A stretch of 64,000 nucleotides of DNA, taken from Candidatus Limnocylindrales bacterium (GTDB lineage Bacteria > Chloroflexota > Limnocylindria > Limnocylindrales > CSP1-4). Of this stretch, positions 6,109 through 64,000 are shown piece by piece. The position numbers and the translations under genes are program-made. Under the pieces are notes generated by a model. It was not told the DNA's origin and did no database searches. It saw only the letters and a program-made list of their open reading frames with translations. The DNA lies in the NCBI GenBank assembly GCA_035688805.1, contig DASSMQ010000006.1, positions 15,012-79,011 on the forward strand. The letters run 5' to 3'. Each line of letters begins with the position of its first letter. Position 1 is the first letter of the stretch.

Positions 6109-6127
6109 ACTCGTTCTCCGGTGGTAG

Positions 6128-6154: not shown

Positions 6155-6167
6155 CGGGTCGGGAGGC

Positions 6168-6197: not shown

Positions 6198-6221
6198 CGC
6201 GTGGTCGGCGTCGCGGAGCTC

Positions 6222-7454: not shown

Positions 7455-7456
7455 CG

Positions 7457-8227: not shown

Positions 8228-8232
8228 GCCCG

Positions 8233-10044: not shown

Positions 10045-10324
10045 GAGGCGGGAGTGTAGCGGGCGCGGAGCCGCCGACTACTCGTGTGCCTACGGCAGGA
10101 CCGCCATCGTCGCTTCGCGTGGAGTCGTGAGAGGACTGCCATCCGGCATTGGTCGGCAGGTATCTTCAGGCCTGGTTTCCGTAGGACGTACCCAAGAGCG
10201 ATCTGACGTGGAGCGACCATTCCGAGTCACGCGGCGAATACACCCAAAGAAGCTCGTTCCTGGCTCCACGCCACCGGCGACCTGACTCTCGCGGCGCCGC
10301 TTCGCAGGGGCAACCCCCCGAGGA

Positions 10325-11077: not shown

Positions 11078-11196
11078 CGGCGATTGTAGGGGCGCGTCGG
11101 CTGCATCTCGCCACCATCTGCTACCATCCGTCGTCGCGCCGCCGCCCTCGCGCCGCGCGAACCCGATCAGATCCCACGCACGTGAGGTTCTCCCCC

Positions 11197-11847: not shown

Positions 11848-11926
11848 GTGGACGGGGTCCGGCGACGGGCCCCTCTCGGTACCGTCGACCGCCCCGGCAC
11901 CAGCCGGGGCGTCGTCATGCCGCCCC

Positions 11927-12729
11927 CTACTGGAAGCACCACCCCCGCGCTTCGAGGGCTTTTCGCTCGAGATCGGACAGGGCGATCACGAACGCCGTCT
12001 GGTCGAATGCCTTGTACAGCTCGAAGCGCCGTCCCGGGCTGGCGATGAGGGCGTCGATCGGGGCGAGGATGCCGGGATCGATCCAATCCTCGAGGTAGGC
12101 CGGGTGGAGCTCGTGGACGCCGTCCGCGAGGCTGAACCTGACCGTGACCGGACCCTTCGACCCAGCCCATGTCTCGGTGATGTCACCCGGATCGAACGCC
12201 CCGCCCGAGATCTCGCTCCAGGCGGCCAGGGTCTGGACGTACACCTCGTTCTCCGGGGCGACGTCCGCCTCGAGGTCCTGCCACCAGACGCGGGCGTGGT
12301 CCTGCTGAGCGACGGCGAGGTCGAGCATGGCGGGCGGGAGCTCGACGGACCCGCTCGGGTCGCTCGCGGCAGTCTGGCCGGACCCATCTCCGGCGCTGCC
12401 CCAGGTCTCGGCGATACCGTCCTTGACGTAGGCCGTCAGGTCGGCCTCCGAGAGCTCGGCCTGATCCGCGAAAAGGCCGATCGCCCGCAGGTCGGCTACG
12501 CGTTGGGCGATCGTGGCGTCGGTCGCCGGCGGCAGCGGGTCGGCGTCGCAGGCCGCGCTGGCGACATTCGTCGGTCGGGGCACGTCGACACGGGTCGAGC
12601 CGAGCCCGGGCACGTCGACGAACTCACCCGAGCCGACGCCGCCCGTCGGCGGAGCCGCACACGCGGCGGCGAGGACGCCGGCGACGAGGCTGGCCGCGAT
12701 CGCCGCGACCGCCGCGCGGAGACGCCCGC

Positions 12730-12733
<4 letters not shown>
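11927..12733 (-). CDS. hypothetical secreted lipoprotein
   Basis: Signal peptide plus lipobox (MSGRLRAAVAAIAASLVAGVLAAAC). The ATG overlaps the upstream stop (ATGA). Confidence 0.6.
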
Positions 12734-17031
<4,298 letters not shown>

Positions 17032-21200: not shown

Positions 21201-21965
21201 CGGGGTGGGCTCGATCGTCGGCACCGGCGACGCAGTCGGACCGGGGGTGGCCGTCGCCGTCGGACTGGGCGACAGCGTCGGCACGGCGGTCGGCGTGGCC
21301 GTCGGCGTCGGGCTCGGGCTCGCGACGGGGGCAGGGATCGGCGGTGACGCTACATCCTGCGGTCCCGGCGTCGCCGACACGAACCAATCAGCGCCATTGG
21401 CGTTCGTGTCGATGGCGTTGCCGAGGACTCCACCAGGGCGCCGTTCGAGGCTGGATCCCGCGGGTGGCGCGGCAGCCGCCGTCCCCTCGACGAAGGCGTT
21501 GGTCGCATCACCCCAGCCGATCGCGTCGATCACCGAACCACCGACCACGCGCAGCGCGACCGACCCTCCGGTCGCGGCGAAACCGCCCGAGTACGTCGCA
21601 TCGCCGAACCCGACGTAGGAGCCAGCGCCATTGACGATGAGCGTCCGCTGTCCGGGACCAAGGATCGTCGACGTCGACCAGGTCGCCTTGCGCGTGACCG
21701 TCGAGCCGGTCGACGTCGCGTACACGACCTCGAGCCCGACCAGATCGGCAGGACCCGTACCCTGATTGGCGATCTCGACGAACTCGTCCGATGCGCTCGA
21801 GCCGCCGGTCTGGATCTCCGACACGACGAGCGTGGATACCGGCCACGCGGCCGACGCCGCGAGTGCGACGTCCCCCAGCCGTGCGCTGTGTGTGGGTCCG
21901 CTCGACAGGCAGACGGCGACGACGAGGGCGAGCGCGGTGGTCCCCGCGCGCCGGGCGCGTTGCAT
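18294..21965 (-). CDS. large secreted/anchored protein: signal peptide, lamin-tail domain (LTD), Pro/Thr linkers, repeated OB-fold-like modules, C-terminal TM helix
   Basis: 1223 aa. N-terminal signal peptide, then an LTD-like VVSEIQTGGSSASDEFVEIANQG. At least four internally similar ~90-aa modules (e.g. VTISGVLTTD...FVQDATGGIALY and VAIRGVVTAE...PVQDATGALIVRL). C-terminal hydrophobic helix followed by RRRHARR. Confidence 0.8.
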   Translation of the reverse strand: MQRARRAGTTALALVVAVCLSSGPTHSARLGDVALAASAAWPVSTLVVSEIQTGGSSASDEFVEIANQGTGPADLVGLEVVYATSTGSTVTRKATWSTSTILGPGQRTLIVNGAGSYVGFGDATYSGGFAATGGSVALRVVGGSVIDAIGWGDATNAFVEGTAAAAPPAGSSLERRPGGVLGNAIDTNANGADWFVSATPGPQDVASPPIPAPVASPSPTPTATPTAVPTLSPSPTATATPGPTASPVPTIEPTPAPMPEPTAPPSPAPTPEPTVPPTPEPTVPPTPAPTPEPTVPPTPEPTMPPTPEPTPVPTVSPAPTPTPPPTTSIVAARALPDGSVVTISGVLTTDLGALEAGRTAFVQDATGGIALYLDAVVVDPIAAGTAIHVHGEVDSRYAQRTLRITQGAVMVDGNPGVPPALGTTTGGATELLEGTRLEAQGSVTGADEALADGTAFSIDDGSGPVRVVVTPTAVAGRPVSQGTMVTAVGPLGQRDSSGTGTGGYRLYVTAPGDLQLALPTSTPVPTSTPAPSPTSAPSTTPTEDPTATPEPTPTADMTATPTVTPTPIPTPTATSAPPAEAMAIGTARTMPVGTSVAIRGVVTAEPGRVGTPALFPVQDATGALIVRLPAELPAPSRGQVVWVRGPLADPYGQTEIRPLASDLHVEGVGVLPEPAVVPPSGPDESSEAKLVRFDGLVVVRPVKSTSNDITVTIETSDGTRVRVMTDASSGLGTSAFDLWARYRVTGIAGQRASKKDQPDGYRIWARDPADVVLTVPAPTPTPSPSHAPTPTPKPKPNGSTTTGGTPTVLSIAAARRVTDRDVAIEAVVTAPATLLDSTGRRIVVQDPSGAIEVLVPKTASAPGVGSRIRAVGRIGSAYGAPRLRATSLDRLGSASIPAPLRVAGALGAAHTWRLVSIAGRVDAVHKLGDRWRAEVISGAQSLVVIGQPGAAIPSTVLGAGGTAEIVGIVRPAYPSATDRRPAVLPRGSADVHVTSVPRASDRRSGGDSGVAVTSTEGPVLSSGAPGVGRTVADADLADLEALLGATVRVGGLVVELRPTGFRLDDGTSVGSIVLTGEAAGWLGLIEPRDAINVVGRVRRDEDGQTVVVVDDPSTIVLGSGLDGLGNPTPASSPEAGTAAIGTTGERSAPEMQVAGFGADPGLLPGAGASLLGLTGVGALSVVAATLRRRHARRLVAARVATRLASIGGRARPPEGVGRTVNGG
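21041..21200 (-). repeat. in-frame tandem repeat (60-nt period with 24-nt sub-repeat) encoding the PEPTVPPT linker
   Basis: 21061-21120 and 21121-21180 are 57/60 identical. Encodes TPEPTVPPTPEPTVPPTPAP. Confidence 0.85.
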
Positions 21966-27186: not shown

Positions 27187-28725
27187 ATGGGCTTACCTGA
27201 CCGGGTGCGATCGACCCGTCACCGTCGCCATGCCGCCTGGTCTCGCCTCGTCCTCACCCTGACCGCCGCGGTCACGCTCTTGGCCGGGATCGCGGGCCCG
27301 ATCCCCGCTGTCCGGGCCGCGGACATCCGACCGCGGATCACCGGGATCGCGCCCCTGACCCACGAGGTCTACGGGTATCTCCCCTACTGGCGCCTGGATG
27401 CCGGCACGGTCGACCGGCTGCACTACGACCTCGTGTCGACCATCGCGTTCTTCGGCCTCGGGATCCTCGGGACGGGGGCGATCGACACGTCCTGGATCGG
27501 CTATCGGGCGTACATCGGCGACGACGCGGCGGCGGTCACCAATGCCGCCCACGACCACGGGGTTCGGGTCGTTCCCACGTTCCAGCTGTTCGATTCGGCG
27601 ACCGGCGCGCCCAAGATGACGGCGTTCCTCGGCAGTCGGTCGGCGCAGGACCGGTTCATCGGCGAGGCGCTCGACCTCATGGCCGCACGGAGCGCCGACG
27701 GTGCCGGGCTCGACTTCGAACCGGTCGGCGCCCTGGCCGCGCGCGCCTCGGAGTACGTCGCCTTCGTGGCCCGGTTCCGGGGCGCGATGAAGGCCCGCTT
27801 CCCGGGAGCCACGCTGGTGACCGCGACCTCGGCTGGGGCGACCCAGGAGCTCGTCCAGGGTGTCGCCCCATACGTCGATCATCAGATGGTGATGACCTAC
27901 AACTACCGCTCCTCCGGCTCGACGATCGCCGGCGCGGTTGCCCCGCTCGATCACGCGACGAGGAACGTCAAGAAGCACATCACCCGGATGCTGGGCTGGG
28001 TGCCGGCACGCTCCTTGCTGCTCGGCGAGCCCTATTACGGATACGACTGGCCGGTCACCAGCGCCATCCCGAACGCGACGGTCCAGTCGGACAAGTCGAC
28101 CTATGGCCCCGTCCGGAGCGTCACCTACGCCAGTGCCCGCGATTTCCTGGCCGCGCACCCGAGTGTCGTCCGGCGCTACGACTCTCTCGAGGGGAGCGCC
28201 TTCTACTGGTACTACGACAGCACGAAGCGGACCTACCGCGAAGCCTATTTCGACGATGAGCGGAGCCTCGCCGCGAAGGACGACTACGCGATCGCCACCG
28301 GCCTTGGCGGGATCGGCATCTGGACGCTCGACAACGACCGCGGCTACCGGCAGCTGTGGGACGTCCTCCGTTCGAAGTTCTACGCCCCGGTCCTGAGCAT
28401 GTCGGTCCGGGCGTCGGTCAGCGACCTGACCCGGGTATCCGGGGTCGTGTCCGTGGTCGTCCATGCCGGAGCCACGAATACGGGGACCGTGCCGCTGACC
28501 GGATCGCTGCGCTGGGCGATCCGCGACCCAGGTGGCCGAGTCGTGGCCAGCGGTCATTGGCCGACCACCGTCGTCTACCCTGGCCGGAGCACGAGTCACG
28601 CCGTCCGTGCCGCCCTCGGGCTGGCCACCTCCCTGCCAGCCGGCACCTACCACCTTCGGGTGCGGTTCGTGACGTCGACGAAGGCCTACGGGCCGCCGGA
28701 CGTGGCCTTCCGCCAGCCGTACTGA
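27187..28725 (+). CDS. secreted glycoside hydrolase family 18 protein (chitinase / peptidoglycan-hydrolase-like)
   Basis: Signal peptide, catalytic motif DGAGLDFEP (DGxxxDxE), then MTYNY and GIGIWTLDND. Has a ~110-aa C-terminal beta-rich domain. Confidence 0.85.
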   Translation: MGLPDRVRSTRHRRHAAWSRLVLTLTAAVTLLAGIAGPIPAVRAADIRPRITGIAPLTHEVYGYLPYWRLDAGTVDRLHYDLVSTIAFFGLGILGTGAIDTSWIGYRAYIGDDAAAVTNAAHDHGVRVVPTFQLFDSATGAPKMTAFLGSRSAQDRFIGEALDLMAARSADGAGLDFEPVGALAARASEYVAFVARFRGAMKARFPGATLVTATSAGATQELVQGVAPYVDHQMVMTYNYRSSGSTIAGAVAPLDHATRNVKKHITRMLGWVPARSLLLGEPYYGYDWPVTSAIPNATVQSDKSTYGPVRSVTYASARDFLAAHPSVVRRYDSLEGSAFYWYYDSTKRTYREAYFDDERSLAAKDDYAIATGLGGIGIWTLDNDRGYRQLWDVLRSKFYAPVLSMSVRASVSDLTRVSGVVSVVVHAGATNTGTVPLTGSLRWAIRDPGGRVVASGHWPTTVVYPGRSTSHAVRAALGLATSLPAGTYHLRVRFVTSTKAYGPPDVAFRQPY

Positions 28726-55135: not shown

Positions 55136-55474
55136 CTACGCGTGCGTGGCGGGTCGGACTCGCATAGCCTGGGCTGCGGTCCGGGTCGCTGGGGCCCGAA
55201 GCGGGTGTGCGCGCGGAATCGCTGCCGCTGCGCGGGACCGGTCGGGATGTGCGGAGCATAGCCCCGGCCGGAATCGGCGTCAATGCGGGTGGCCAGTACC
55301 TCCGTCCCTCTCGGCCCACGTTCGCCGATGTCGGAGCCGGTCGCCTGCGGCACGGCTCGTCGGCACTGGCCCGCTCGATGCGCCACGGACCGGTCCTCGC
55401 CATCGACGCTCGTCTCGGCCACGATAGGCGGGCGCGATCTCGACCCATCCCGCGAACCGCAGGAGCCACCACGC

Positions 55475-55900
55475 ATGCGAACCAACCTGACGATCGACGA
55501 TCTCGGTGGACTCCTCGATCAACCACTCATCGCGGTCCTGGCCACCCGGCGACAGGACGACACGGTCATGCTCTCGCCGGTCTGGTTCGAGTGGTTCGAG
55601 GGTGGGATCAACATCTGGGTCCCGACGATCGAGGGTGGCAAGGTCGCCCACGTCCGACGCGACCCGCGGGTGACCGTCGTCGTGGCCAACCAGGCCTGGC
55701 CATACAAGGGCTTCGAGCTGCGCGGCGAGGCCACGGTCTCGACGGACCCCGATGCCTTCTACGGGACGCTGGGCCGCACGGGCTTGCGCTACAGCGGTCC
55801 CGAGGCCGCCGAGCGGATGGTCCGCGAGTACGCACCCGGCGCCGTCATCCGACTCGAGCCGGGGACGATCCGGGCGTGGGACTACGAAGACGAGGCCTGA
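55475..55900 (+). CDS. PPOX-class (pyridoxamine 5'-phosphate oxidase-like) flavin/F420-binding protein
   Basis: 141 aa beginning LLDQPLIAVLATRRQDDTVMLSPVWFEW, then RDPRVTVVV. AGGAG lies 9 nt before the ATG. Confidence 0.72.
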   Translation: MRTNLTIDDLGGLLDQPLIAVLATRRQDDTVMLSPVWFEWFEGGINIWVPTIEGGKVAHVRRDPRVTVVVANQAWPYKGFELRGEATVSTDPDAFYGTLGRTGLRYSGPEAAERMVREYAPGAVIRLEPGTIRAWDYEDEA

Positions 55901-55914
55901 ACAACGGCGCGCTC

Positions 55915-55928
55915 CACGACATGTCGTG
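55915..55928. promoter_or_regulatory. perfect 14-bp palindrome CACGACATGTCGTG upstream of the SorC-type regulator gene (operator or terminator candidate)
   Basis: Read directly. It lies 14 nt after the PPOX stop and 52 nt before the regulator start, and is followed by a second small hairpin, CGCTC-GAAT-GAGCG. Confidence 0.4.
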
Positions 55929-55980
55929 ACCGCTCGAATGAGCGCTTGCCACCCACATGCGCAACGACTAGGGTCATCGG

Positions 55981-56964
55981 GTGGCTCCCGTCCAGCGTCC
56001 GGTCCTCGCACTCCAGGTCGCGCGGCTCTTCTTCGACCGGCGGATGACGCGCATCGAGATCGCCGCCCAGCTCGGGATCTCGCGCTTCCGCGTCGCTCGA
56101 CTGCTCGACGGCGCCCTCGCTGACGGTCTCGTCCGCGTCGAGTACCGCGATCTGCCGATCGAGGACCGCGACGTCGCCAGACGGCTCGAGGACCGGTTCG
56201 GACTCGGCCTGTGCGCGGTAGCGGCCGACGGTCCGAGCCCGACCGCCGGCGCGGTCGCGGAACTCGCGGGCTCGCTGCTCGATGGGCTCATCGGCCAGGA
56301 CGAGACCGTCGGTATCGCGTGGGGCTCGACGCTGGCGGCCGTGGTCGCCGCGGTGCCACCGCGCCACGATCCGTCGATCCGGGTGGTCCAGCTCGCCGGG
56401 TCCTCCAGCCGGCTGGTCGGAGGGCGCGATGCCGGGGAACTGACTCGGGCCCTGGCCGCGCGACTCGGTGCTGCTCACCATGCGATCTACGCCCCGGCCG
56501 TGGTCGACTCCGCCATCGTCCGCGAGGCACTCGTCCGGGCGCCCGAGGTCGCCGACGCGGTGGGTCGGTTCGACGACATCAGCCTGGCGGTCGTCGGCAT
56601 CGGGGTGATCCCCGCGGACGGGGTCACACCCGCGTCATCGCTGATTCGATCCGGAGCGCTCGATGCGGCGGACATCCGACGGATGGTCGACCTCGGCGCG
56701 GTCGGCGAGCTCGTGGTCCATCCGTTCGATCTCGACGGCCGATTCGTCGACGCGGCGCTGGCGGCTCGCGCGATCGCCATCGACATCGATCGGCTGCGAG
56801 CGATCGGCCGCGTCGTCGCGGTCGCATGGGGAGTCGACAAGGCGACGGCCATCCGGGGTGCCCTGCGGTCGGGCGTCGTGGACATGCTGGTGACGGACGC
56901 TCGGACCGCCGCGGCCGTCCTCGAGGTCGATGATCAGCTCCGCTCGGCGACCCTCGATGGCTGA
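55981..56964 (+). CDS. SorC/CggR-family sugar-binding transcriptional regulator
   Basis: N-terminal HTH (TRIEIAAQLGISRFRVARLL) plus a sugar-phosphate-binding domain (IGIAWGSTL ... AVGELVVHPFD). Confidence 0.8.
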   Translation: MAPVQRPVLALQVARLFFDRRMTRIEIAAQLGISRFRVARLLDGALADGLVRVEYRDLPIEDRDVARRLEDRFGLGLCAVAADGPSPTAGAVAELAGSLLDGLIGQDETVGIAWGSTLAAVVAAVPPRHDPSIRVVQLAGSSSRLVGGRDAGELTRALAARLGAAHHAIYAPAVVDSAIVREALVRAPEVADAVGRFDDISLAVVGIGVIPADGVTPASSLIRSGALDAADIRRMVDLGAVGELVVHPFDLDGRFVDAALAARAIAIDIDRLRAIGRVVAVAWGVDKATAIRGALRSGVVDMLVTDARTAAAVLEVDDQLRSATLDG

Positions 56965-57757
56965 CCGACTCCGGGGACGGACGCTGCTCGTGACCGGCTC
57001 CACGGGCATCGCGGCCGCGACCGCCGTGCGCGCGGCGACCGAGGGCGCCCGAGTGTTCGTGATCTCGCGCGCAGCAGATCACGCAGCAGCGCTCGCCGAC
57101 CGTGTCGCAGGTGGGTGGGCCGCGGCCGATCTGACCGATGAGTCGGCCGTCGATGCCGCGGTTCGCGCTGCCATGGATCATCTCGGCCGGATCGACGCCG
57201 CCTTTTCGGCGGCCGGCGGGAGCGGCCGTCGATTCGGCGACGGTCCGATCCACGAGCTCACAGCTGCGGCGTGGGAGGCAACGGCCGGCTTGAACCTCCG
57301 AACCCAGGTCCTCGTCTGCGGCCGGGTCATCCGCGCGATGCGCGAGCAAGCGCTCGACGCGGACGGCGGTCGCGGATCCCTCCTGCTCCTCGGTAGCGTG
57401 ACGGCGACCGCACCCGTGCCCGAGTGGTTCGGGACCCACGCCTATGCGACCGCCAAGGGGGCACTGACCGCCCTGATGACCTCGCTCGCAGCGACCTACA
57501 TCGCGGACCGGATCCGGGTGAACCTCCTCGTGCCCTCGCTGACCGCGACGCCGATGGCGGCGCGAGCCGCTGCCGACGCGCGGATCCTCGCCTATGCCGC
57601 CCGCAAGCAGCCGCTGGCGGGGCCGATGCTCGACCCCGACGAGGTGGCCAAGGCGGCGCTCTTCTTCCTGTCCGACGAGTCGCGGGCCGTCACCGGCCAG
57701 TCGCTGGCCGTCGATGGTGGCTGGTCCATCGTGTCGACCGGCGCGGAGCTGACGTGA
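56957..57757 (+). CDS. SDR-family oxidoreductase
   Basis: LVTGSTGIAAA (TGxxxGxG-like) and YATAKGAL (YxxxK). 8-nt overlap with the regulator gene. Confidence 0.85.
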   Translation: MADRLRGRTLLVTGSTGIAAATAVRAATEGARVFVISRAADHAAALADRVAGGWAAADLTDESAVDAAVRAAMDHLGRIDAAFSAAGGSGRRFGDGPIHELTAAAWEATAGLNLRTQVLVCGRVIRAMREQALDADGGRGSLLLLGSVTATAPVPEWFGTHAYATAKGALTALMTSLAATYIADRIRVNLLVPSLTATPMAARAAADARILAYAARKQPLAGPMLDPDEVAKAALFFLSDESRAVTGQSLAVDGGWSIVSTGAELT

Positions 57758-59103
57758 CCAGCGATCGATGGCCGCTCATCGCCGATGTCGACGTGGGCAT
57801 CGTGGGCGGTGGCTCGGCGGGGTCCACTGCCGCGATCGCTGCGGCCCGGCAGGGCGCGTCGGTCCTGCTTATCGATCGACTGCCCTTCCTGGGCGGCACG
57901 AGCACGGCGGTCCTCGACACGTTCTACGGCTTCGTCACCCCCGGTGAGCGGCCGCGCAAGGTGGTCGGCGGCGTGGCCGACGAGATCGTCGCCGGCCTGC
58001 GCCGACTCGGGCCGGTCGTCGAGCGACCCAACACGTACGGCGCGGGGACCGGGATCACCTATCTACCGGATCACCTGAAGGTGGTGTGGGAGGACGCGGT
58101 GGCCGGTTCCGGATCCCGGGTCCTGCTGCATGCGATGCTCCAGGAGGCGGACGTCGCCGACGGCCGGGTCCGGTCGGTCCTGGTCGCGACCCGCGGCGGC
58201 CTCGTGCGGATCCGCGCGCGGGTGTTCATCGATGCGTCCGGCGACGCCGACCTATGCGCCGCCGCCAACCTTGGCTACGAGATCGCCGGCGCCGTCGAGC
58301 CCGCCCAGACGCTGACGACCACGTTCCGGATGACCAACGTGGACCTCGAACGGCGACGAACAGTGTCGAAGGCCGATCTCCATGCGCGCATGGCCGACGC
58401 TGCGGCAAGCGGCGACTACGACCTGCCGCGGCGGGATGGCAGCGACCACGTCACGCCGATCGACGGCGTCATGGCGACGGTCATGACTCGCCTCGCGTCG
58501 ACGCGCGCGGGGCTCGACGGGCACTTGGTCGACGTCACCGATCCATGGTTCCTGACCGAGGTGGAGATGGCGGGACGCCGCCAGGTGCTCGACTATGTCC
58601 GCTTCCTGCGCGATCGCGTCCCGGGCTATGAGGACGCCTCGCTGGTCGGGGTCGGAACCCAGATCGGGGTGCGCGAGACACGGCGGGTCTTCGGGGATGC
58701 GCGCCTCACGGGCGACGACGTCCTCGCTGCCCGCCAGTTCGACGATCAGATCGGCCTGTGCGGCGCCCCGATCGAGGACCACCATCCCGGCAGTGACACG
58801 GCCTGGCGCTACCTGCCCGAGGGCCGGGCCGTGGGGATCCCGTATCGAGCGTTGGTCGTGCGCGACGCGGCGAACGTCCTCGTCGCGGGCCGCTGCTTCA
58901 GCGCGACCCACGAGGCGCATGCCGCGGTCCGCTCGATGGCCCAGTGCATGGCGATGGGCCAGGCGGCCGGGACGGCCGCCGCGATCGCGGTCGGCGATGG
59001 CGTCGACCCGCGCGAGATCGACGCGACCGCGCTGCGCGACGCGCTTCGGCGCGATGGCGCCGTCGTCGACCTCGATCGGGCGCCGGCATGGGTGGCGGCA
59101 TGA
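57754..59103 (+). CDS. FAD-dependent oxidoreductase (FAD_oxidored / GidA-like fold)
   Basis: GTGA overlap with the SDR gene. DVGIVGGGSAGSTAAIAAARQGASVLLIDR...GGT dinucleotide-binding motif. Confidence 0.8.
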   Translation: MTSDRWPLIADVDVGIVGGGSAGSTAAIAAARQGASVLLIDRLPFLGGTSTAVLDTFYGFVTPGERPRKVVGGVADEIVAGLRRLGPVVERPNTYGAGTGITYLPDHLKVVWEDAVAGSGSRVLLHAMLQEADVADGRVRSVLVATRGGLVRIRARVFIDASGDADLCAAANLGYEIAGAVEPAQTLTTTFRMTNVDLERRRTVSKADLHARMADAAASGDYDLPRRDGSDHVTPIDGVMATVMTRLASTRAGLDGHLVDVTDPWFLTEVEMAGRRQVLDYVRFLRDRVPGYEDASLVGVGTQIGVRETRRVFGDARLTGDDVLAARQFDDQIGLCGAPIEDHHPGSDTAWRYLPEGRAVGIPYRALVVRDAANVLVAGRCFSATHEAHAAVRSMAQCMAMGQAAGTAAAIAVGDGVDPREIDATALRDALRRDGAVVDLDRAPAWVAA

Positions 59104-60083
59104 CGGCCGCGCGGTTCGTTCGAACCGTGCTCGGCGATATCGACCCGGTCGAGCTCGGGGTGACGTACGCCCACGAGCACCTGGTCATCGACGGCGGCCG
59201 CCCCGTTCTGATGGAACCCGACTTCGATCTCGCCGACGTCGACGCGATGGTCGCCGAGGTCGGCGCGGCCGTCGATCTCGGGCTGGGCGCGGTCGTCGAC
59301 GCGATGCCCTGCGATGCCGGTCGCAATGCCGCCAAGCTCGCGGAGATCTCGCGGCGCACCGGCGTGCAGGTCATCGCATCGACGGGATTGCACCACGAGC
59401 GCTACTACGGACCCGCCCATTGGTCGCATCGGATCGACGTCGAGGAGCTGGCCGACTTGTTCGTGGCCGACATCGAGATGGGCATCGACGCCAACGACTA
59501 CTCGGGTCCCGTCGTCCACCGGATGGCCCACCGCGCCGGCGTCATCAAGGTGGCCGGATCCGCGGGCGGCCTGTCCGACCGGGACCGACCGGTCTTCGAG
59601 GCGGCGGCGGCGGCACATCACCGCACGGGCGCCCCGATCCTGACCCACTGCGAGGGTGGGACCGGCGCCCTCGAGCAGGTGGCCTACCTGCTCGACCGGG
59701 GAGTCGAACCGGATGGCCTCGCCCTGAGCCACGTCGACAAGGTCCTTGACCGCGGCTATCACCGCGACCTGCTGGCCACCGGCGCGACGGCCGAGTACGA
59801 CGGCAGCTTCCGCTGGGGCGACGCACCGAACGGGACGCTCCAGTTGCTCGAGTGGATGACCGAGGACGGCCTCTCGGATCGGATCGTCCTCGGCATGGAC
59901 GCCGCGCGACGGGGCTACTACGCGGTGTACGGTGGGACACCGGGCCTGCGCTGGCTGCTCGACGGCTTCTCGTCGGCGATGGATGCGCGCGGCCTCGGAC
60001 CAGAGCTGCGGCACCGCTGGTTCGTCGAGGTCCCGGCCCGCGTCTTCTCGTTCGGCGCTGTCGATGGAGGGCCTACTGCATGA
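59100..60083 (+). CDS. phosphotriesterase-family (PTE/PHP-like) amidohydrolase-fold hydrolase, probable lactonase-type enzyme
   Basis: ATGA overlap. GVTYAHEHLVID (HxH metal motif), then GLHHE, KVAGS and LTHCE. Confidence 0.78.
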   Translation: MTAARFVRTVLGDIDPVELGVTYAHEHLVIDGGRPVLMEPDFDLADVDAMVAEVGAAVDLGLGAVVDAMPCDAGRNAAKLAEISRRTGVQVIASTGLHHERYYGPAHWSHRIDVEELADLFVADIEMGIDANDYSGPVVHRMAHRAGVIKVAGSAGGLSDRDRPVFEAAAAAHHRTGAPILTHCEGGTGALEQVAYLLDRGVEPDGLALSHVDKVLDRGYHRDLLATGATAEYDGSFRWGDAPNGTLQLLEWMTEDGLSDRIVLGMDAARRGYYAVYGGTPGLRWLLDGFSSAMDARGLGPELRHRWFVEVPARVFSFGAVDGGPTA

Positions 60084-61135
60084 CCGATGGGCTGCGCACC
60101 AGCGTCGTCGGATCGCACGCCCGACCGTCCTGGTTCGTCGCCGGGATCGCCGCCGCGGAACGCGGGGAATTCGGGCCGGCCGACCTCGCCGAGATGCTCG
60201 ACGACGGGGTGGACCTCGCGATCCGCGACCAGGAGGATGCGGGTATCGACCTGGTCAGCGACGGGGAGATGCGCCGTGCCGGATTCTTCACCGCCGAGTT
60301 CTACCTGCGGATCAGCGGCGTCCGGGCCCTGCCAGCGGACCGCCGACTCGGCGCCGGTGGCCACGACCAGCAGCATCGGTTCGAGGTCCTCGAGCCGATC
60401 GCCGCGCCCGACGGCCTCGGCGTGGTCGCCGAGTACCGCTACGCCGCGACTCGCGCGCATCGGCCGCTGAAGGTGACCATCCCCGGTCCGTACACGCTTT
60501 CTGGTCGGTTGCGCACCGGTCCCGGCGAGGTCTACCGCGACCGGGAGGCCGCCGCCGAGGCATTCGTGCCGATCCTGCGGGACGAGCTCCAGGCGCTGGT
60601 CGCTGCGGGCGCGCAGCACATCCAGATCGATGACCCGTCGCCGGCGATCCACCCGGATGCCCCGTCGGATGTGGCCGGGTTGTTCAACGCCGCCGTCGAG
60701 CCCGTGGTCGGTCGGGTCAGGCTGGGGGCGCACCTGTGCTTCGGCAACTACCTCGGACGGCCACTCGCACGGCGCACCTACCGGCCCGTGATGCGGGCCA
60801 TGCTCGAATTCCGCGTCGACGAGCTCGTCCTGGAGTTCGCCAATCGGGAGATGGCCGAGGTCGAGCTGCTCGGGGAGATCGCCTCGGCCGGGCGCGACGT
60901 CGCCGCGGGGATCGTCGATGTCAAGAACTACCACCTCGAGACGCCCGACGAGGTCGCCGAGCGTGCGGACGCGGTCCTCGCCGCGGGCGTTCCGGCTGAG
61001 CGGCTCAGCCTCGTCCCAGACTGTGGGTTCAGCCAGACGGCTCGCTGGGCGACCGTCGCCAAGCTTCGCGCACTCGTCGCCGGCCGCGACCTGGTCGCCG
61101 GTCGCGTCGGTCGACAGGAGGGATCGCATGGATAG
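60080..61135 (+). CDS. MetE C-terminal-like (cobalamin-independent methionine synthase family / URO-D-like) protein
   Basis: ATGA overlap. [13 protein letters not shown] ... SDGEMRR ... HLCFGNY ... VPDCGF are typical of Meth_synt_2 family members. Confidence 0.72.
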
Positions 61136-62327
61136 CCACCGCATCTCGCTACTCGGCACCGGGCTGATCGGTGACTTCTACACCTCGACGCTGCACGGCC
61201 AGCGCGGTCGCGACCGGGTCGAGGTCGTGTATTCGCGCAGCGACGCCCGAACGGCGGCGTTCAAGAAGCGCTGGGATATCCCGGTCGCCACGACCGACAT
61301 CGACGCGGCCATCGAGCATCCCGACACCGACGTCGTGGTGGTCGCCTTGCCCAACTTCCTGCACGTCGACGCGGTCGAGCGGGTCGCCCGCGCGGGGAAG
61401 GCCGTCCTGTGCACCAAGCCACTCGGTCGGACCGCCGACGAGGCGCGCCGGATGCTCGAGGCGGTCGAGTCGGCCGGCGTGTTCGGCGGCTACCTCGAGG
61501 ACCTGGTCTACACGCCAAAGACGCTCAAGGCGGCCGCCGCTGTGGCCGGGGGTGCCGTCGGCGAGGTGACGTGGGTCCGCTCGCGCGAGGCCCATCCGGG
61601 CCCGCACTCGGCCTGGTTCTGGGATGGCCGTCTGACCGGTGGCGGCGCGATCATCGACCTGGGCTGTCATTGCATCGAGATCATCCGGACCTTCGTCGGC
61701 AAGGGCGATCGGCCGGTCGACGTGATGTGCCACACCGACACCCTGGTCCACCCGATCAGCGACGAGGACAACGCCGTCGCGCTCATCCGATTCGAATCGG
61801 GCGCTGTCGGCCAGTTCGAGGTCAGCTGGACGTTCCGGGGCGGCATGGACCTACGCGACGAGGTCGCCGGCACCCACGGCACGATCTGGTTGAACCATTT
61901 CCTGCGGACCGGCTTCGAGATGTTCACGGCCGGCGGCGCCGGGGGCTACGTGGCCGAGAAGGCGGAGACCGAAGCGGGCTGGCTGTTCCCCGTCGGCGAC
62001 GAGACCGCCGAGCTCGGCTACGTCGACATGTTCAGCGACATGTTCCGCGCGATGGAGACGGGCAACGACCCCCGTGAGACCTTCTACGACGGCTACGTCG
62101 TGAACGCGGTCATGGATGCCTGCTACCGGTCGGCGGCGAGCGGCAACTGGGCCCCGGTCGACCTCGAGTGGCGCGGCGGCACGACCGCGCGCATCGCGTC
62201 GACACCGGAACGGTACGAGGGCCAGGTCGTCATCAAGCGCGAGATGCTGCCCGACGGCCGGCACAAGCTGATCCTCAAGGACGAGGCGACCGGCGACTTC
62301 AGCGATCGCGTGGTGGCGGCAGGCTGA
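61128..62327 (+). CDS. Gfo/Idh/MocA-family NAD(P)-dependent oxidoreductase
   Basis: 8-nt overlap, with GGAGGG upstream. [13 protein letters not shown] Rossmann motif and CTKPL (EKP-like). Confidence 0.85.
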
Positions 62328-62343
62328 CGGCCCGCCGCCCGCG

Positions 62344-63690
62344 TCAGCCGGTCGGGGCGAGCCGCAGCGCCGGTGCCGCGGCCGGGTGACCGGCCTCGAG
62401 CCAGCGGCCGATCGACTCGCGCGCGAACAGCTGGTCAACGACCATCGCCGACGCGCCGATGACGCCGGCGAGGCCGCCGAGCGACGAGTGGGCGATGCGC
62501 AGGTCCCGCGTCGCCAGAGGCAACGATCGGCGCTCGACCGTCTGGCGGATCGCGGCGATGAACGACTCCGGGCTATTCGCGACGCCGCCGCCGATCACGA
62601 TCAGCGACGGGTTGAAGAAGTTCACGACGCTCGCCAGCATCGACCCGACCCGGCGGCCGGCCGTGTCGAGCATGGCCGCCGCCACGGGGTCGCCGAAGGA
62701 TGCGGCTCGCGCGACGTCCTCGGCCGTGACCTGGCCGGTCCGGTCGAGGGCCCCGGCCAGACGCACGCTGCGACCCTCCCGGGCGGCGAGTTCGCCCGCT
62801 CGCCCCAGAGCGCCACCACCGGCATATGCCTCGAGGCACCCGACGTTCCCACACCGGCAGACGACCGAGGGGTCGTCCGAGACGCCGATATGGCCGACGT
62901 CCCCGGCACTGCCCTGGGCGCCGCGATGGAGGCGACCGTCGGAGATGATCCCGGCCCCGATCCCGGTCCCGACCTTGATGACGACCACGTTGTCGTGGCC
63001 CGACGCGACCCCGGATCGCCATTCCCCGAGGGCCAGCAGGTTGACGTCGTTGTCGACCCAGACCGGCGCCGCGTAGCGCTCTTCGAAGCGCTCCCGGATC
63101 GGGTAGCCGTCCCAGCCGGGCATGATCGGCGGGGAGATCGGTCGACCGGACCCGAACTCGACGGGACCTGGGACACCCACACCGACCCCCCACAGCCGAC
63201 CCGGCACGTCCTTGGCGGTCGCCAGGAGCAGCGCGAACAGGGCGTCGACGCGATCAAGGCACGCCTCGGGGCCGTCCTCGATGCGGGCCGGCTCGTCATG
63301 ATGGCCGAGGATCCGGCCGTCGAGCGTGGTCAGGGCGACGTCGATGCTGGTCGCACCGAGATCGGCGACGAGCACGTGCCCGGCCGTCGCCTTGAACGCC
63401 AGCTGGCGGGGCGGGCGTCCGCCGGTGCTGGGCCCGACGGGGCCTTCGCTGATCAGGCCCCGGTCGAGCAACTCGCCGACCCGACGCGCGACGATCGCGC
63501 GACCGAGCCCCGTCCGCTCGACGAGCTCCGAGCGCGACCGAGACCGCCCCAGGCGGATCTCATCCAGGACCGTGACCAAGTCGTCGAGCACTTCGTCCGG
63601 TAGCGCCGGCGCGGTAGGCGTCGGCAGGTCCTCGTCCACGCCGCGATGATACCCACCGACCCTTGTCACGACCACTTTTGCACTTGACAC
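62344..63690 (-). CDS. ROK-family transcriptional regulator (NagC/XylR type)
   Basis: wHTH (RSELVERTGLGRAIVARRVGELLDRGLI), a ROK core and the zinc motif CRCGNVGCLEAYAGG. A GTG at 63639 is a more likely start than 63690. Confidence 0.85.
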   Translation of the reverse strand: MSSAKVVVTRVGGYHRGVDEDLPTPTAPALPDEVLDDLVTVLDEIRLGRSRSRSELVERTGLGRAIVARRVGELLDRGLISEGPVGPSTGGRPPRQLAFKATAGHVLVADLGATSIDVALTTLDGRILGHHDEPARIEDGPEACLDRVDALFALLLATAKDVPGRLWGVGVGVPGPVEFGSGRPISPPIMPGWDGYPIRERFEERYAAPVWVDNDVNLLALGEWRSGVASGHDNVVVIKVGTGIGAGIISDGRLHRGAQGSAGDVGHIGVSDDPSVVCRCGNVGCLEAYAGGGALGRAGELAAREGRSVRLAGALDRTGQVTAEDVARAASFGDPVAAAMLDTAGRRVGSMLASVVNFFNPSLIVIGGGVANSPESFIAAIRQTVERRSLPLATRDLRIAHSSLGGLAGVIGASAMVVDQLFARESIGRWLEAGHPAAAPALRLAPTG

Positions 63691-63695
63691 GTCAA
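63684..63695. promoter_or_regulatory. inverted repeat TTGAC-AC-GTCAA in the ROK/Gfo divergent region (operator candidate)
   Basis: Read directly. A further repeat block, AGACCATC-TAGACTGTCT-AGACCATC with two TCTAGA palindromes, lies at 63763-63788. Confidence 0.35.
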
Positions 63696-63824
63696 AGTAC
63701 GATCGCTCTAGCAGCGAGGATCGTGCGGCGCGCGCAACACGAGGCGCCGCATCGGGTCGCGCAGACCATCTAGACTGTCTAGACCATCACGGCTCGGCGC
63801 CAGGCAGGAGGAGGCCAGACGCCA

Positions 63825-64000
63825 TTGGCGAATCTCGCGTCCGTCGGCGCCGCCGTCATCGGGACCGGCTTCATCGGCACGGTCCACGTCGAGGCGTTGC
63901 GTCGCATCGGGGTCCAGGTCCGCGGTGTGCTCGGCAGTACCCCGGAGCGTGGCGCGGCACGAGCCGACGATCTCGGGGTGGCCACGGCCTACCGAGACCT
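63825..64000 (+). CDS. Gfo/Idh/MocA-family oxidoreductase, 3' end outside the window
   Basis: A TTG start follows GGAGGAGG by 10 nt. N-terminus VGAAVIGTGFIGTVHVEALRRIG is a Rossmann motif. Confidence 0.7.
   Translation, partial: MANLASVGAAVIGTGFIGTVHVEALRRIGVQVRGVLGSTPERGAARADDLGVATAYRD

Follow-up and report, generated by a model that had tools for sequence, protein, structure and literature searches.

Gene content of the locus

The DNA analysed here (the window, 64,000 nucleotides) comes from an uncultured soil Chloroflexota bacterium (Candidatus Limnocylindrales, MAG-type). Its plus strand encodes, in order, a SorC regulator, a short-chain dehydrogenase/reductase (SDR), a PF12831 flavoenzyme (FADox), a PTE-like hydrolase, a MetE-like protein and a Gfo/Idh/MocA dehydrogenase, Gfo1 (Table 1). 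The gene calls and families given for this cluster in the initial annotation agree with the open reading frames and Pfam matches, as does the placement of a convergent ROK regulator and a second Gfo/Idh/MocA gene, Gfo2, behind it. The neighbours of the cluster are the housekeeping genes Rho, Obg, DnaE and LeuRS.

Table 1. Genes and non-coding features of the locus
Feature	Position	Strand	Basis or remark
Perfect palindrome CACGACATGTCGTG	55915..55928	.	present in sequence
Conserved promoter/operator-like block upstream of SorC	55932..55974	+	inter-locus comparison
GCTCGAATGAGC, candidate operator part	55932-55943		
TTGCCA in SorC upstream block	55946-55951		
CACATGCGC, candidate operator part	55954-55962		beside GCTCGAATGAGC
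TAGGGT in SorC upstream block	55969-55974		17 nt after TTGCCA
SorC/DeoR-type sugar-binding transcriptional regulator, 327 aa	55981..56964	+	Pfam Sugar-bind 187 bits
SDR, 266 aa	56957..57757	+	Pfam adh_short_C2 155 bits
PF12831 FAD-dependent oxidoreductase (FADox), 449 aa	57754..59103	+	Pfam FAD_oxidored 363 bits
PTE-family (PF02126) binuclear-metal hydrolase, 327 aa	59100..60083	+	Pfam PTE 141 bits
MetE/MesD-like zinc TIM-barrel protein, 351 aa	60080..61135	+	Pfam Meth_synt_2 PF01717, 90 bits
Gfo/Idh/MocA NAD(P) dehydrogenase (Gfo1), 399 aa	61128..62327	+	all three Pfam Gfo/Idh/MocA domains
ROK-family protein, regulator type	62344..63675	-	Pfam ROK 203 bits, residues 110-418
Conserved non-coding element TTTTGCACTTGACACGTCAAAGTA	63676..63699	.	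directly upstream of ROK
Perfect 7-1-7 palindrome TCTAGACTGTCTAGA	63769..63783	.	about 40 nt upstream of Gfo2
Second Gfo/Idh/MocA gene (Gfo2), 5' end	63825..64000	+	runs off window; reads MANLASVGAAVIGTGFIG from TTG 63825

The six genes form one translationally coupled unit. All five junctions overlap by 4-8 nt, as had been described, with ATGGCTGA (8 nt) at SorC/SDR, GTGA at SDR/FADox, ATGA at both FADox/PTE and PTE/MetE-like, and ATGGATAG (8 nt) at MetE-like/Gfo1. These overlaps exceed chance, because identical ones recur in other species: the 4-nt ATGA overlap of PTE/MetE-like in 42 of 51 loci, the FADox/PTE overlap in 18 of 22 and the SorC/SDR overlap in 13 of 16. A search of nt 55200-64000 for internal promoter-like or terminator-like sites found none. 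The reading of the locus as an operon coupled in translation, with two regulators of the sugar type, is supported.

SorC scores highest in NCBIfam with the B. subtilis-type DeoR model (145 bits, below the 420 cut-off) and reaches 82 bits with the LsrR model. The SDR reaches no NCBIfam cut-off, and its top PDB match, 4NI5, is an uncharacterised SDR. Its start at nt 56957 is preferable to that of a shorter public gene call (255 aa), which would drop the first Rossmann strand. FADox has no sequence homologue in the PDB. The best NCBIfam models for Gfo1 are IolG (119 bits, cut-off 355) and levoglucosan dehydrogenase (108 bits). The ROK protein carries an N-terminal extension of about 100 aa with a weak winged-helix match at residues 39-81, and its scores with the NagC and Mlc models (169 and 149 bits) are below the cut-offs. 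Its most likely start is nt 63675, with nt 63690 as the alternative, because nt 63676-63699 are a conserved non-coding element. Gfo2 starts at TTG 63825, behind GGAGGAGG, which corrects the start at nt 63824 given initially.

The PTE-like hydrolase matches 3MSR/3OVG (E 1e-48) and 3PNZ (E 1.6e-40) best in the PDB, which we take to be MS53_0025 and Lmo2620, both of them phospho-sugar lactonases that have been characterised. The metal-ligand positions HxH, K, H, H and D align. With the NCBIfam 'phospho-furanose lactonase' model of these structures it reaches 179 bits against a cut-off of 630. The protein is a putative (phospho)sugar lactonase. The earlier name 'PTE-like lactonase' holds for the family and the nearness to phospho-sugar lactonases; the activity itself is predicted from these.

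The AF2 model of the MetE-like protein (pLDDT 91.4) has MesD (3RPD) as its top Foldseek match, with a TM of 0.81. The protein is a 'core' synthase without the folate domain, and it misses every cut-off of the NCBIfam methionine-synthase models. Among 169 family members, 98-100% keep residues H218, C220, E252, C315, S12, E63 and D184; the Cys2-His-Glu zinc set is complete in the family, and so is the trio of residues binding the homocysteine amino and carboxyl groups.

Conservation of the cluster and its partners

Conservation was counted in 80 species-representative loci of ~20 kb each, a partner being a gene within 3 kb of the MetE-like gene on the same strand. PTE is such a partner in 57 loci, SDR in 55, Gfo1 in 48, FADox in 26 and Eda in 15, and at least one among PTE, SDR, Gfo1, FADox and Eda occurs somewhere in the ~20-kb locus in 77 of the 80. 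Eda, present at all in 28 loci, lies directly 3' of the MetE-like or PTE gene in L060, L068, L070, L071, L073 and L082. FADox is an optional member that stands either after the SDR or in its place; SorC and ROK genes occur in 15 and 34 loci, respectively. The median identity of the MetE-like protein across the species loci is 77%. By gene-neighbourhood comparison the cluster is kept as a unit in hundreds of related species, in every case with the MetE-like gene, and for this reason the concern that it might not be conserved as a unit falls away.

The unit is co-conserved in many species with a neighbour operon comprising Gfo2, AP_endonuc_2, DeoC aldolase, SIS_2 isomerase and a ribose-type ABC transporter. 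In relatives (the L005 orthologue and downstream genes), Gfo2 is the first gene of a Gfo2-AP_endonuc_2-DeoC-SIS_2-Peripla_BP_4-ABC operon, whose DeoC passes TIGR00126 (231 bits, cut-off 117) and whose SIS passes PRK02947 (250, cut-off 135). The substrate-binding protein (SBP) of its transporter is of the ribose/furanose type; the Peripla_BP_4 transporter itself belongs, like the Gfo and AP_endonuc_2 enzymes, to the inositol/sugar type. A common arrangement sets ROK-FADox-PTE-MetE-like divergent from Gfo2-AP_endonuc_2-SBP-ABC across one shared intergenic region. The reported lack of a transporter and a kinase is true within the window but not beyond it: a Peripla_BP_4 ABC transporter follows directly after the second Gfo gene in relatives, and distant relatives carry ROK or PfkB kinases.

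Two enzymes make up the invariant catalytic core that surrounds the MetE-like gene, namely an SDR and a metal-dependent ring-opening hydrolase. The latter is PTE in the window and an MBL-fold protein in distant relatives, a non-orthologous displacement; the MBL-fold gene adjoins the MetE-like gene in L089, L091, L092, L095, L101 and L108, and the sole named relative of these proteins is L-ascorbate-6-P lactonase. Relatives at about 45-60% identity occur in similar clusters, often with SIS_2, SDR, ROK kinase and Gfo, and often with the MBL-fold hydrolase in place of PTE. In distant relatives (42-66% identity) the SDR adjoins the MetE-like gene, as in the modules ROK kinase-Gfo-SIS_2-(M20)-SDR-MetE-like (L088, L104) and SIS_2-SDR-MetE-like (L100, L105). 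The translational coupling of the MetE-like gene and its association with SDR, PTE or MBL, Gfo and SIS_2 outlast gene-order changes and extend to relatives of about 45% identity. Amino-sugar genes lie near some loci, namely NagA, NagB-II and a NagB-like gene after Gfo1, and the L088 operon includes an ArgE/DapE-type N-acyl-amino-acid deacylase.

In one lineage only (L095/L097), the MetE-like gene shows coupling, through an overlap of 4 nt, to IolC (398 bits against a cut-off of 300), IolA/MMSDH (565 against 448) and a DHAP-type aldolase. Among the genes called within +/-10 kb, none belongs to an IolD-like (TPP-enzyme) or an IolB-like (KduI) Pfam family; therefore two steps are missing there alongside two unassigned genes, MetE-like and MBL.

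Some members of the MetE-like family (43-59% identity) are located outside sugar clusters. A stand-alone homologue of 59% identity adjoins a B12 riboswitch and a TonB receptor, and other relatives adjoin CoA ligases or transferases. Comparison of residue positions between sugar-context and stand-alone members gave no clean separator. No methionine, SAM or B12 riboswitch was found before the MetE-like gene.

Candidate operators

The perfect 14-bp palindrome reported before the operon, CACGACATGTCGTG, is present, but its significance did not hold up. The window contains 12 such palindromes against 15.8 +/- 4.1 expected, and among 90 loci this one is restricted to the same-species contigs L001-L003. 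Thus it is probably not a conserved operator. The block immediately after it may be a promoter. Wherever SorC is the first operon gene (L021, L025, L026, L053), GCTCAnATGAGC ... TTGnnn ... CACAnATGnGC is found upstream, and the pattern GCTCNNATGAGC has a single occurrence in the window.

Two candidate operators lie on the ROK side. The element at nt 63676-63699 carries the inverted repeat TTGACnnGTCAA and matches the window once, where 0.00 matches are expected; about 17 other species also have it between ROK and Gfo2. The palindrome at nt 63769-63783 has no second exact match in the window; about 15 other species share it in the form TCTAGAnnGTCTAGAC, and it is a candidate operator of the Gfo2 operon.

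Possible role of the MetE-like protein

The locus is best explained as one half, controlled by SorC, of a catabolic regulon that Limnocylindrales keep in two operons under sugar repressors, with an imported monosaccharide- or cyclitol-like compound as the substrate. Tentatively, and with low confidence, we propose that the MetE-like enzyme is a non-thiol keto-acid processor in an oxidative dehydrogenase-lactonase-dehydrogenase route. Gfo1 would oxidise C1 to give a lactone, which the PTE-like enzyme would open to an aldonate, possibly a phospho-aldonate, and the SDR (and/or the flavoenzyme) would oxidise a hydroxyl to yield a keto-acid. The MetE-like zinc TIM barrel, recruited from methionine synthesis, would convert this keto-acid via a zinc-stabilised enolate, by beta-keto-acid decarboxylation or by aldose-ketose isomerisation/ring processing. 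The AP_endonuc_2 epimerase, SIS_2 isomerase, kinase and aldolase (DeoC; Eda in many relatives) would finish the product. In favour of this route are the conservation of the unit, the linkage of the two operons, the related modules of distant relatives, the 'phospho-furanose lactonase' family of the structures nearest to PTE, and L095/L097 with its two missing steps and two unassigned genes. Pfam and NCBIfam detect no conventional dehydratase or decarboxylase among the cluster genes, and the MetE-like enzyme may fill the single step without a conventional cluster enzyme. In build, the route resembles the oxidative pentose-phosphate, L-ascorbate (ula/yia) and oxidative deoxyribose pathways. The deoxyribose operon of P. 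simiae has a zinc TIM barrel as its cleavage enzyme. That operon follows the same logic: a lactonase and an SDR act first, and the beta-keto-acid that the SDR makes is then cleaved (PMC6365646).

Several points stand against keto-acid processing. The zinc and homocysteine-binding residues, kept at 98-100%, would most simply be read as homocysteine chemistry; residues do not cleanly separate sugar-context from stand-alone members, some of the family lies outside sugar clusters, the IolC/IolA coupling is limited to a single lineage, and the window cluster itself encodes no kinase. To our knowledge, all characterised PF01717 enzymes alkylate a thiol, and we know of no decarboxylase or isomerase precedent in the fold family.

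The main rival, itself doubtful, holds that an O-methylated monosaccharide or cyclitol, such as pinitol-type methyl-inositols or methylated (deoxy)sugars, is activated by the neighbouring dehydrogenases, and that the MetE-like enzyme moves its methyl group to zinc-activated L-homocysteine to give methionine and the free sugar. BHMT similarly couples betaine catabolism to methionine synthesis. The zinc ligands and homocysteine-binding residues are all kept as in MesD and MetE, the nearest fold is MesD crystallised with selenomethionine, and the 'core' synthase without the folate domain would need a non-folate donor. The position of the stand-alone homologue, by its B12 riboswitch and TonB receptor, is one that a methionine synthase might have, the inositol/sugar-type Gfo, AP_endonuc_2 and transporter and the relative coupled to IolC/IolA fit such substrates, and no bacterial methyl-inositol demethylase is known. 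However, alkyl methyl ethers donate their methyl group poorly, the neighbourhood encodes no corrinoid protein, each substrate molecule would cost one homocysteine, and the constancy of SDR and ring-opening hydrolase as top partners is left unexplained. L095 also lacks IolD and IolB, both still needed after demethylation.

The retained alpha-amino/alpha-carboxylate binding triad could alternatively hold an alpha-amino acid such as glucosaminate or mannosaminate. It is improbable that an amino sugar is oxidised to a 2-amino-2-deoxy-aldonate (or phosphate), which the enzyme would convert to a 2-keto-3-deoxy acid and ammonia, with Eda cleaving the acid as in the Salmonella DgaE/DgaF route. Eda in 28 of 80 loci, several times directly after the MetE-like or PTE gene, and the recurrent NagA, NagB-II, NagB-like and deacylase (L088) genes agree with this, but known glucosaminate lyases are PLP-dependent, the family has no known precedent, the SBP is of the ribose/furanose type, and most loci, the window included, are without amino-sugar genes. 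Very improbable is the salvage of S-ribosyl-L-homocysteine or a similar 5-thio-pentose conjugate. The enzyme would bind the homocysteine moiety and its zinc would expel the thiolate once a dehydrogenase had introduced a ketone beta to the C-S bond, in the manner of SAH hydrolase and LuxS, leaving the pentose to kinase, isomerase and aldolase. This would account mechanistically for the SDR/MetE-like coupling and the kept homocysteine site and zinc, and the ribose/furanose-type SBP, DeoR/LsrR-like regulator and DeoC aldolase agree. The nearest characterised relatives of PTE presumably open 5-substituted pentono-1,4-lactones, which also favours it. That the fate of S-pentosyl sulfur compounds is described as an open question (PMC6302742) counts in its favour too. 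Against it, the ROK/PfkB kinases and SIS_2 suggest common phosphosugars whose primary hydroxyl is free, the surroundings contain neither a nucleosidase nor other genes of the methionine cycle, the oxidation-lactonase branch would be superfluous, and no such pathway is known. The least probable reading makes the enzyme a folate-independent methionine synthase, or with PTE a homocysteine-thiolactone hydrolase and methionine synthase pair, whose place in a sugar operon is incidental. The family annotation, residue conservation, surrounding Rho, Obg, DnaE and LeuRS genes and the well-conserved protein would fit. Yet the coupling and the SDR, PTE/MBL, Gfo and SIS_2 association persist through gene-order changes, the gene is under sugar-type repressors without a methionine, SAM or B12 riboswitch before it, and all curated methionine-synthase cut-offs failed.

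The pairing of a PTE-like lactonase with a MetE-like protein had been noted as a pathway not recognised, and searches of Pfam, NCBIfam, the PDB, plasmid records and the literature matched the cluster to no characterised pathway. The MetE-like zinc enzyme is a sugar-operon member without a previously described role in sugar metabolism. Catabolism of a carbohydrate or cyclitol derivative, as first suggested, is still the best general description, and one distant relative couples the MetE-like gene to bona fide IolC/IolA.

Organisation and putative regulatory DNA of the operon

Six genes on the forward strand, spanning nt 55981–62327, encode a SorC-type regulator, an SDR, a PF12831 FAD oxidoreductase (FADox), a PTE-family hydrolase, a Meth_synt_2 (MetE-like) protein and a Gfo/Idh/MocA dehydrogenase (Gfo1). 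ORF calls and Pfam matches agree with the families named in the initial annotation, and all five junctions read exactly as it stated. Each is an overlap of 4–8 nt, in order ATGGCTGA, GTGA, ATGA, ATGA and ATGGATAG. The same start/stop overlaps recur in most orthologous loci, with the ATGA overlap between the PTE and MetE-like genes retained in 42 of 51, and no promoter-like or terminator-like sites were found within the six-gene unit. From the conserved overlaps and the uninterrupted interior, the six genes are predicted to form a translationally coupled operon. A ROK-family gene is convergent with this unit, and beyond it lies a second Gfo/Idh/MocA gene (Gfo2), which starts from a TTG preceded by the ribosome-binding site GGAGGAGG and runs past the end of the window. 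The features are collected in the table.

Genes and putative regulatory elements of the sugar locus
Feature	Position	Strand	Content	Location and occurrence
SorC-upstream conserved block	55932–55974		GCTCGAATGAGC (55932–55943), promoter-like pair TTGCCA-17 nt-TAGGGT, CACATGCGC	Present wherever SorC heads the operon
SorC	55981–56964	+	SorC-type regulator
SDR	56957–57757	+	SDR
FADox	57754–59103	+	PF12831 FAD oxidoreductase
PTE	59100–60083	+	PTE-family hydrolase
MetE-like	60080–61135	+	Meth_synt_2 protein
Gfo1	61128–62327	+	Gfo/Idh/MocA dehydrogenase
ROK	62344–63675	−	ROK-family protein
ROK-upstream element	63676–63699		TTTTGCACTTGACACGTCAAAGTA	Directly upstream of ROK; once in the window, common to at least 15 species
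7-1-7 palindrome	63769–63783		TCTAGACTGTCTAGA	About 40 nt upstream of Gfo2; once in the window, common to at least 15 species
Gfo2	from 63825		Gfo/Idh/MocA dehydrogenase

The public call for the SDR in L001, a locus of the same species, covers nt 2539–3306 and begins 11 codons downstream of the overlapping ATG (window nt 56957). The overlapping start is more plausible, since the shorter call would drop the first Rossmann beta-strand (RTLLVTG). The gap between Gfo1 and ROK is 16 nt in the window; in a few relatives a 246-residue protein with no Pfam match is encoded there (nt 12264–13004 of the relative's locus L005). The remainder of the window, whose G+C content is about 71%, is housekeeping in character (DnaK, LepA, enolase, PGK, DnaE, LeuRS, ComEC), and the names of near-identical proteins point to Candidatus Limnocylindrales, Chloroflexota. 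Among the housekeeping genes are one for a 976-residue protein with only OB-fold/BOF matches (nt 18294–21224, − strand) and a GH18 chitinase-like gene (nt 27187–28725, + strand).

The SorC protein combines a sugar-binding domain (Sugar-bind, 187 bits, residues 62–315) with an N-terminal DNA-binding part, as in the SorC family. Its residues 9–314 align with the DeoR model at 145 bits against a cut-off of 420, so the likeness to DeoR is at the family level only. The ROK protein has its ROK domain at residues 110–418 and, in an N-terminal extension, a weak wHTH match at residues 39–81, and it falls under the cut-offs of both the NagC and Mlc models. ROK proteins of kinase size, lacking the extension, are present in distant clusters.

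A perfect 14-bp palindrome before the operon (nt 55915–55928) had been singled out in the initial annotation. It exists, but it is unremarkable: the window holds 12 perfect 14-bp palindromes against 15.8 expected, and this one was found in same-species contigs only. With a frequency at chance level and no occurrence in other species, it was rejected as an operator. The two elements at nt 63676–63699 and 63769–63783 both lie in the divergent intergenic region of ROK and Gfo2 and are operator-like. The motifs GCTCGAATGAGC, TTGACACGTCAA and TCTAGACTGTCTAGA, within regions 55925–55980 and 63670–63790, are candidate operators for SorC and ROK. The GTG start of SorC is situated just 7 nt past the −10-like hexamer; this could mean that the SorC mRNA has no leader or that translation really begins further downstream.

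Conservation of the locus and its distant relatives

When one genome from each GTDB species was searched for stretches encoding relatives of the MetE-like protein, at least 586 were found, and metagenome contigs gave at least 488. The best 80 of the former display 59–91% identity and almost all come from MAGs of Limnocylindrales or other Chloroflexota. The window proteins, together with those of a relative's neighbour operon, were mapped onto these 80 loci of about 20 kb. Genes were called by a codon-position GC likelihood caller, which reproduces nearly all public calls of L005 apart from a few start sites. The consensus order is [Eda] [SorC] SDR [FADox] PTE MetE-like Gfo1, a convergent ROK, then Gfo2, AP_endonuc_2, DeoC, SIS_2, Peripla_BP_4 and an ABC transporter.

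Within 3 kb of the MetE-like gene and on the same strand, PTE was present in 57 of the 80 loci, SDR in 55, Gfo1 in 48, FADox in 26 and Eda in 15; at least one of the five occurs somewhere in the locus in 77. In a second common layout, ROK-FADox-PTE-MetE-like is divergent from Gfo2-AP_endonuc_2-SBP-ABC with one intergenic region between them, and this shared region indicates that the two operons belong together. The partner counts, the retained overlaps and the linkage of the two operons show that the cluster is conserved as a unit, which answers the doubt, raised with the first description, that relatives might not keep it together. The regulon is among the most conserved sugar-utilisation loci of Limnocylindrales/CSP1-4. 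The earlier statement that no transporter is present holds for the window but not for the locus, as the relatives' ABC transporter sits just beyond the position corresponding to nt 64000. Also beyond the window end, the DeoC of the relatives' second operon passes the TIGR00126 cut-off of 117 bits (231 in L005, 203 in the relative L091), and the relatives' SIS protein passes that of PRK02947.

In about 13 Limnocylindrales species (L012, L013, L014, L016, L022, L031, L055, L056, L062, L063 and others), a GH3 beta-glucosidase, an SBP_bac_1 ABC transporter and a LacI regulator are inserted as a cassette beside Gfo1, which suggests that the region is a general sugar-utilisation island. In two species (L039 nt 2332–8141 and L044 nt 2148–7960), a CarH-type MerR/B12-binding regulator and an operon for an SDR, a cyclase, an amine oxidase, DUF1365 and a cyclopropane fatty acid synthase are situated between rho and the sugar cluster. 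These genes upstream of the SDR were rejected as additional pathway members, being a CarH-regulated operon of the cyclopropane-fatty-acid type.

At E ≤ 1e-30 the subfamily as a whole numbers about 1,400 proteins. More distant MetE-like proteins, with 42–66% identity to that of the window, were examined in long contigs and the metagenome scan. Most are again found in sugar clusters. One layout is ROK kinase-Gfo-SIS_2-(M20 deacylase)-SDR-MetE-like, in which the ROK kinase has no DNA-binding extension; another is SIS_2-SDR-MetE-like; in a third, Gfo-AP_endonuc_2 adjoins the MetE-like gene, accompanied by aldolases of the DeoC family, PfkB kinases and ABC transporters of the ribose type. At six distant loci an MBL-fold hydrolase adjoins the MetE-like gene in place of the Limnocylindrales PTE, and the sole named relative of these MBL proteins is L-ascorbate-6-phosphate lactonase. 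We read this as one ring-opening hydrolase having displaced another.

In L095 and L097 (ERZ16299697 NODE_1; L095 nt 6001–10513), the MetE-like gene overlaps by 4 nt the start of a bona fide IolC, followed by IolA/MMSDH and a LacD-like DHAP aldolase, with Gfo, AP_endonuc_2 and an MBL hydrolase upstream. Among the genes called within 10 kb on either side, none belongs to an IolD-like or IolB-like Pfam family. Judged by this gene content, the locus may represent a variant inositol pathway with two steps replaced.

The more divergent members (about 43–59% identity) are also found outside sugar clusters, where their neighbours include CoA ligases or transferases and lactam/amide hydrolases. A stand-alone homologue of 59% identity on a Rhodothermales chromosome (OZ220707.1; L086 nt 9797–13502) is followed by a cobalamin riboswitch (nt 11300–11550, 78.7 bits) and a TonB-dependent receptor, with no sugar genes near it. 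Apart from this downstream riboswitch, the Rfam search gave no matches in the window or the distant loci, and riboswitch control of the MetE-like gene was rejected. For the most divergent members (about 43% identity; L175–L177, about 5 kb on each side), the surroundings are a long operon that also encodes 5-oxoprolinase-like PxpB/PxpC subunits, an NHL beta-propeller, a CoA transferase of family III, an acyl-CoA ligase and an amidohydrolase. Such a context is non-sugar, yet the MetE-like enzyme is again paired with ring-opening hydrolases and carboxylic-acid activation.

The MetE-like protein and its partner enzymes

The MetE-like protein is a single domain of 351 residues, matching Pfam Meth_synt_2 (PF01717) at 90.5 bits against a cut-off of 21. 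Its best PDB relative by sequence is MesD of Shewanella (3RPD, E 7e-24), with 26–30% identity. The AlphaFold (AF2) model is confident (pLDDT 91.4). Its closest superposition is on 3RPD (TM 0.81), followed by those on the catalytic domains of MetE, and the top 32 Foldseek matches are all MesD or MetE structures (TM 0.66–0.81). The predicted fold is thus the MetE-type (beta/alpha)8 barrel of the PF01717 superfamily. The putative zinc ligands H218, C220, E252 and C315 align with those of MesD (E. coli H641, C643, E665, C726) and are 99–100% conserved in 169 family sequences; S12, E63 and D184 of the homocysteine site (E. coli S433, E484, D599) likewise align with MesD and are 98–100% conserved in the same sequences. 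The roles of these residues are taken from Price et al. 2021 (PMC7857596).

Despite the fold, the protein misses the cut-off of every curated methionine-synthase model in NCBIfam. It is not MetE proper, lacking the N-terminal folate-binding domain and scoring 36 bits against 930 for TIGR01371 and 44 against 541 for PRK05222. MesD and the core folate-independent synthases (3RPD; PMC7857596) share with it the single-domain barrel of about 350 residues, the His-x-Cys...Glu...Cys zinc residues and the Ser/Glu/Asp homocysteine residues. However, it reaches 111 bits against the MesD cut-off of 392 (PRK09121), it lacks the insertion with Tyr226 in the 3RPD alignment, neither the window cluster nor the loci of relatives contain a MesX (DUF1852) partner, and its gene is set in sugar operons rather than methionine-regulated ones. 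Among 72,556 plasmids of cultured bacteria no close homologue was found. The enzyme, annotated everywhere as methionine synthase, is almost certainly not performing ordinary methionine synthesis.

The PTE-like protein belongs to its family by a score of 141 bits for PF02126 (cut-off 22). Its best PDB matches are 3MSR/3OVG (E 1e-48) and 3PNZ (E 1.6e-40), which we take to be the phospho-furanose lactonases MS53_0025 and Lmo2620, respectively, and in the alignments to 3MSR and 3PNZ the metal-ligand positions HxH, Lys, His, His and Asp coincide. Against this likeness, the protein is far under the equivalog cut-off of the 'phospho-furanose lactonase' model NF045706 (179 bits against 630), and the alignment shows replacement of one of two Lmo2620 lysines that presumably serve as phosphate ligands. 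Neither the SDR nor the flavoenzyme has an informative characterised relative in NCBIfam or the PDB sequence search, and the likeness of Gfo1 and Gfo2 to dehydrogenases of inositol and levoglucosan goes no further than the family level.

Possible reactions and comparison with known pathways

The constant module consists of an SDR, a ring-opening metal hydrolase and the MetE-like enzyme, surrounded by sugar-type dehydrogenases, an epimerase/isomerase, kinases, aldolases and a monosaccharide ABC transporter. All parts are from known families, and the regulon can be recognised as a locus for sugar catabolism. The initial annotation did not recognise the pathway, and no characterised counterpart was found in NCBIfam, the PDB sequence search, plasmid records or the literature. 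The combination, and most of all the fixed place of a MetE/MesD-like enzyme in sugar operons, is unmatched in curated family libraries, solved structures, annotated plasmids and the searchable literature.

Pathway logic leads us to favour, tentatively, an oxidative route in which the MetE-like enzyme processes a keto-acid. Gfo1 would oxidise a sugar to a lactone, PTE would open the lactone to an aldonate or phospho-aldonate, and the SDR or the flavoenzyme would oxidise this to a keto-acid. The MetE-like zinc barrel would then decarboxylate or isomerise the keto-acid, the step for which the cluster has no conventional enzyme. Such a route would mirror the oxidative pentose-phosphate and ula/yia ascorbate pathways and the lactonase-SDR-cleavage operon of Pseudomonas simiae (PMC6365646).

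Protein-family logic points away from the keto-acid reading and towards thiol chemistry. In every known detail the MetE-like enzyme resembles a homocysteine-binding, zinc-thiolate alkyl transferase, which fits homocysteine-dependent demethylation of a methylated sugar or cyclitol with formation of methionine; this we regard as possible, if on the unlikely side. The same appearance fits thioether salvage, in which homocysteine is freed from a thio-sugar, a reaction that is less likely than demethylation and quite improbable. An amino-aldonate lyase would reconcile the pathway logic with the protein-family logic, but little speaks for it directly and it is improbable. It is very improbable that the protein is a housekeeping synthase that happens to be co-located, and a modest chance is left for something else. 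At strict thresholds no residues separated the sugar-context from the stand-alone family members, so this comparison could not tell the hypotheses apart.

We consider it probable that the MetE-like protein is the founding member of a functional family new to the methionine-synthase fold, which is widespread among Chloroflexota of soil and freshwater and acts in sugar or cyclitol catabolism alongside an SDR and a metal hydrolase that opens rings, be it as a zinc-dependent keto-acid decarboxylase/isomerase, a homocysteine-dependent sugar/cyclitol demethylase or a C-S lyase freeing homocysteine from a thio-sugar conjugate. The keto-acid role, if true, would give this fold its first chemistry that does not involve a thiol, and demethylation would make methionine directly from a carbohydrate methyl group. 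Once known, the reaction could either bring new chemistry to a textbook fold and correct database annotations by the thousand, or tie the catabolism of carbohydrates directly to the methionine/homocysteine pool. The Limnocylindrales/CSP1-4 Chloroflexota are abundant, uncultured bacteria of soil and freshwater, and little is known of the carbon sources they use. The missing step is clearly delimited and widespread in this lineage, and with the conserved SDR-hydrolase-MetE-like module and the operator motifs the question is open to direct test with recombinant proteins.

In the L-ascorbate (ula/yia) and oxidative pentose-phosphate pathways, a lactonase and the decarboxylation of a beta-keto-acid phosphate are followed by an AP_endonuc_2-family epimerase (UlaE/SgbU) and isomerases. 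The order of chemistry proposed here would be the same, and the MBL hydrolases of distant relatives resemble the L-ascorbate-6-P lactonase UlaG. However, the present cluster has neither UlaF nor a UlaD/SgbH-type (OMPDC-family) decarboxylase, and the decarboxylation would have to be performed by the MetE-like protein.

The P. simiae operon uses a cleavage enzyme that is presumably a zinc TIM barrel; it is of the BKACE family, not MetE. The operon serves oxidative deoxyribose/deoxyribonate catabolism with a lactonase, an SDR (aldonate 3-dehydrogenase) and this enzyme acting on a beta-keto acid (PMC6365646). The lactonase and SDR logic is shared with the present cluster, and relatives have a parallel DeoC kinase/aldolase branch; here DeoC passes its equivalog cut-off and SorC is DeoR-like. 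The first dehydrogenase of the P. simiae operon is, however, molybdenum-dependent and its transporters are MFS.

Resemblance to myo-inositol catabolism (iolGEDBCJA; Thermotoga IolG/M/N/O) extends to Gfo/Idh/MocA, the AP_endonuc_2 enzyme, the Peripla_BP_4 ABC transporter and the putative ROK-type regulator, and in L095 the MetE-like gene is coupled to IolC, IolA and the DHAP aldolase. In contrast, Gfo1, Gfo2 and AP_endonuc_2 are under the IolG/IolE cut-offs, with IolG scores of 119 bits in the window and 103 in L005 against 355 and no IolE match in either. IolD and IolB were not found within 10 kb on either side in L095, and IolC and IolA, whose cut-offs are passed in L095 only, were found in a single lineage. 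On these grounds a canonical inositol cluster was rejected as an account of the window.

The epoxyalkane:coenzyme M transferase system of Xanthobacter comprises the MetE-like XecA, SDR dehydrogenases and an FAD enzyme acting on a thioether intermediate. This trio resembles the SDR, FADox and MetE-like proteins here, but its thiol is coenzyme M, its substrate is an epoxide and its flavoenzyme is a disulfide reductase, not PF12831. The single 'xecA1' record found, a plasmid gene annotated 'xecA1, 2-hydroxypropyl-CoM lyase' (AP026971.1, nt 263035–264060; L094), was rejected as an XecA reference, because its gene context marks it as a probable misnamed MesD. It is preceded by genes for MetR, an FMN reductase and a hypothetical protein, a methionine-synthase context of the MesD/MesX type, and the annotation is probably wrong.
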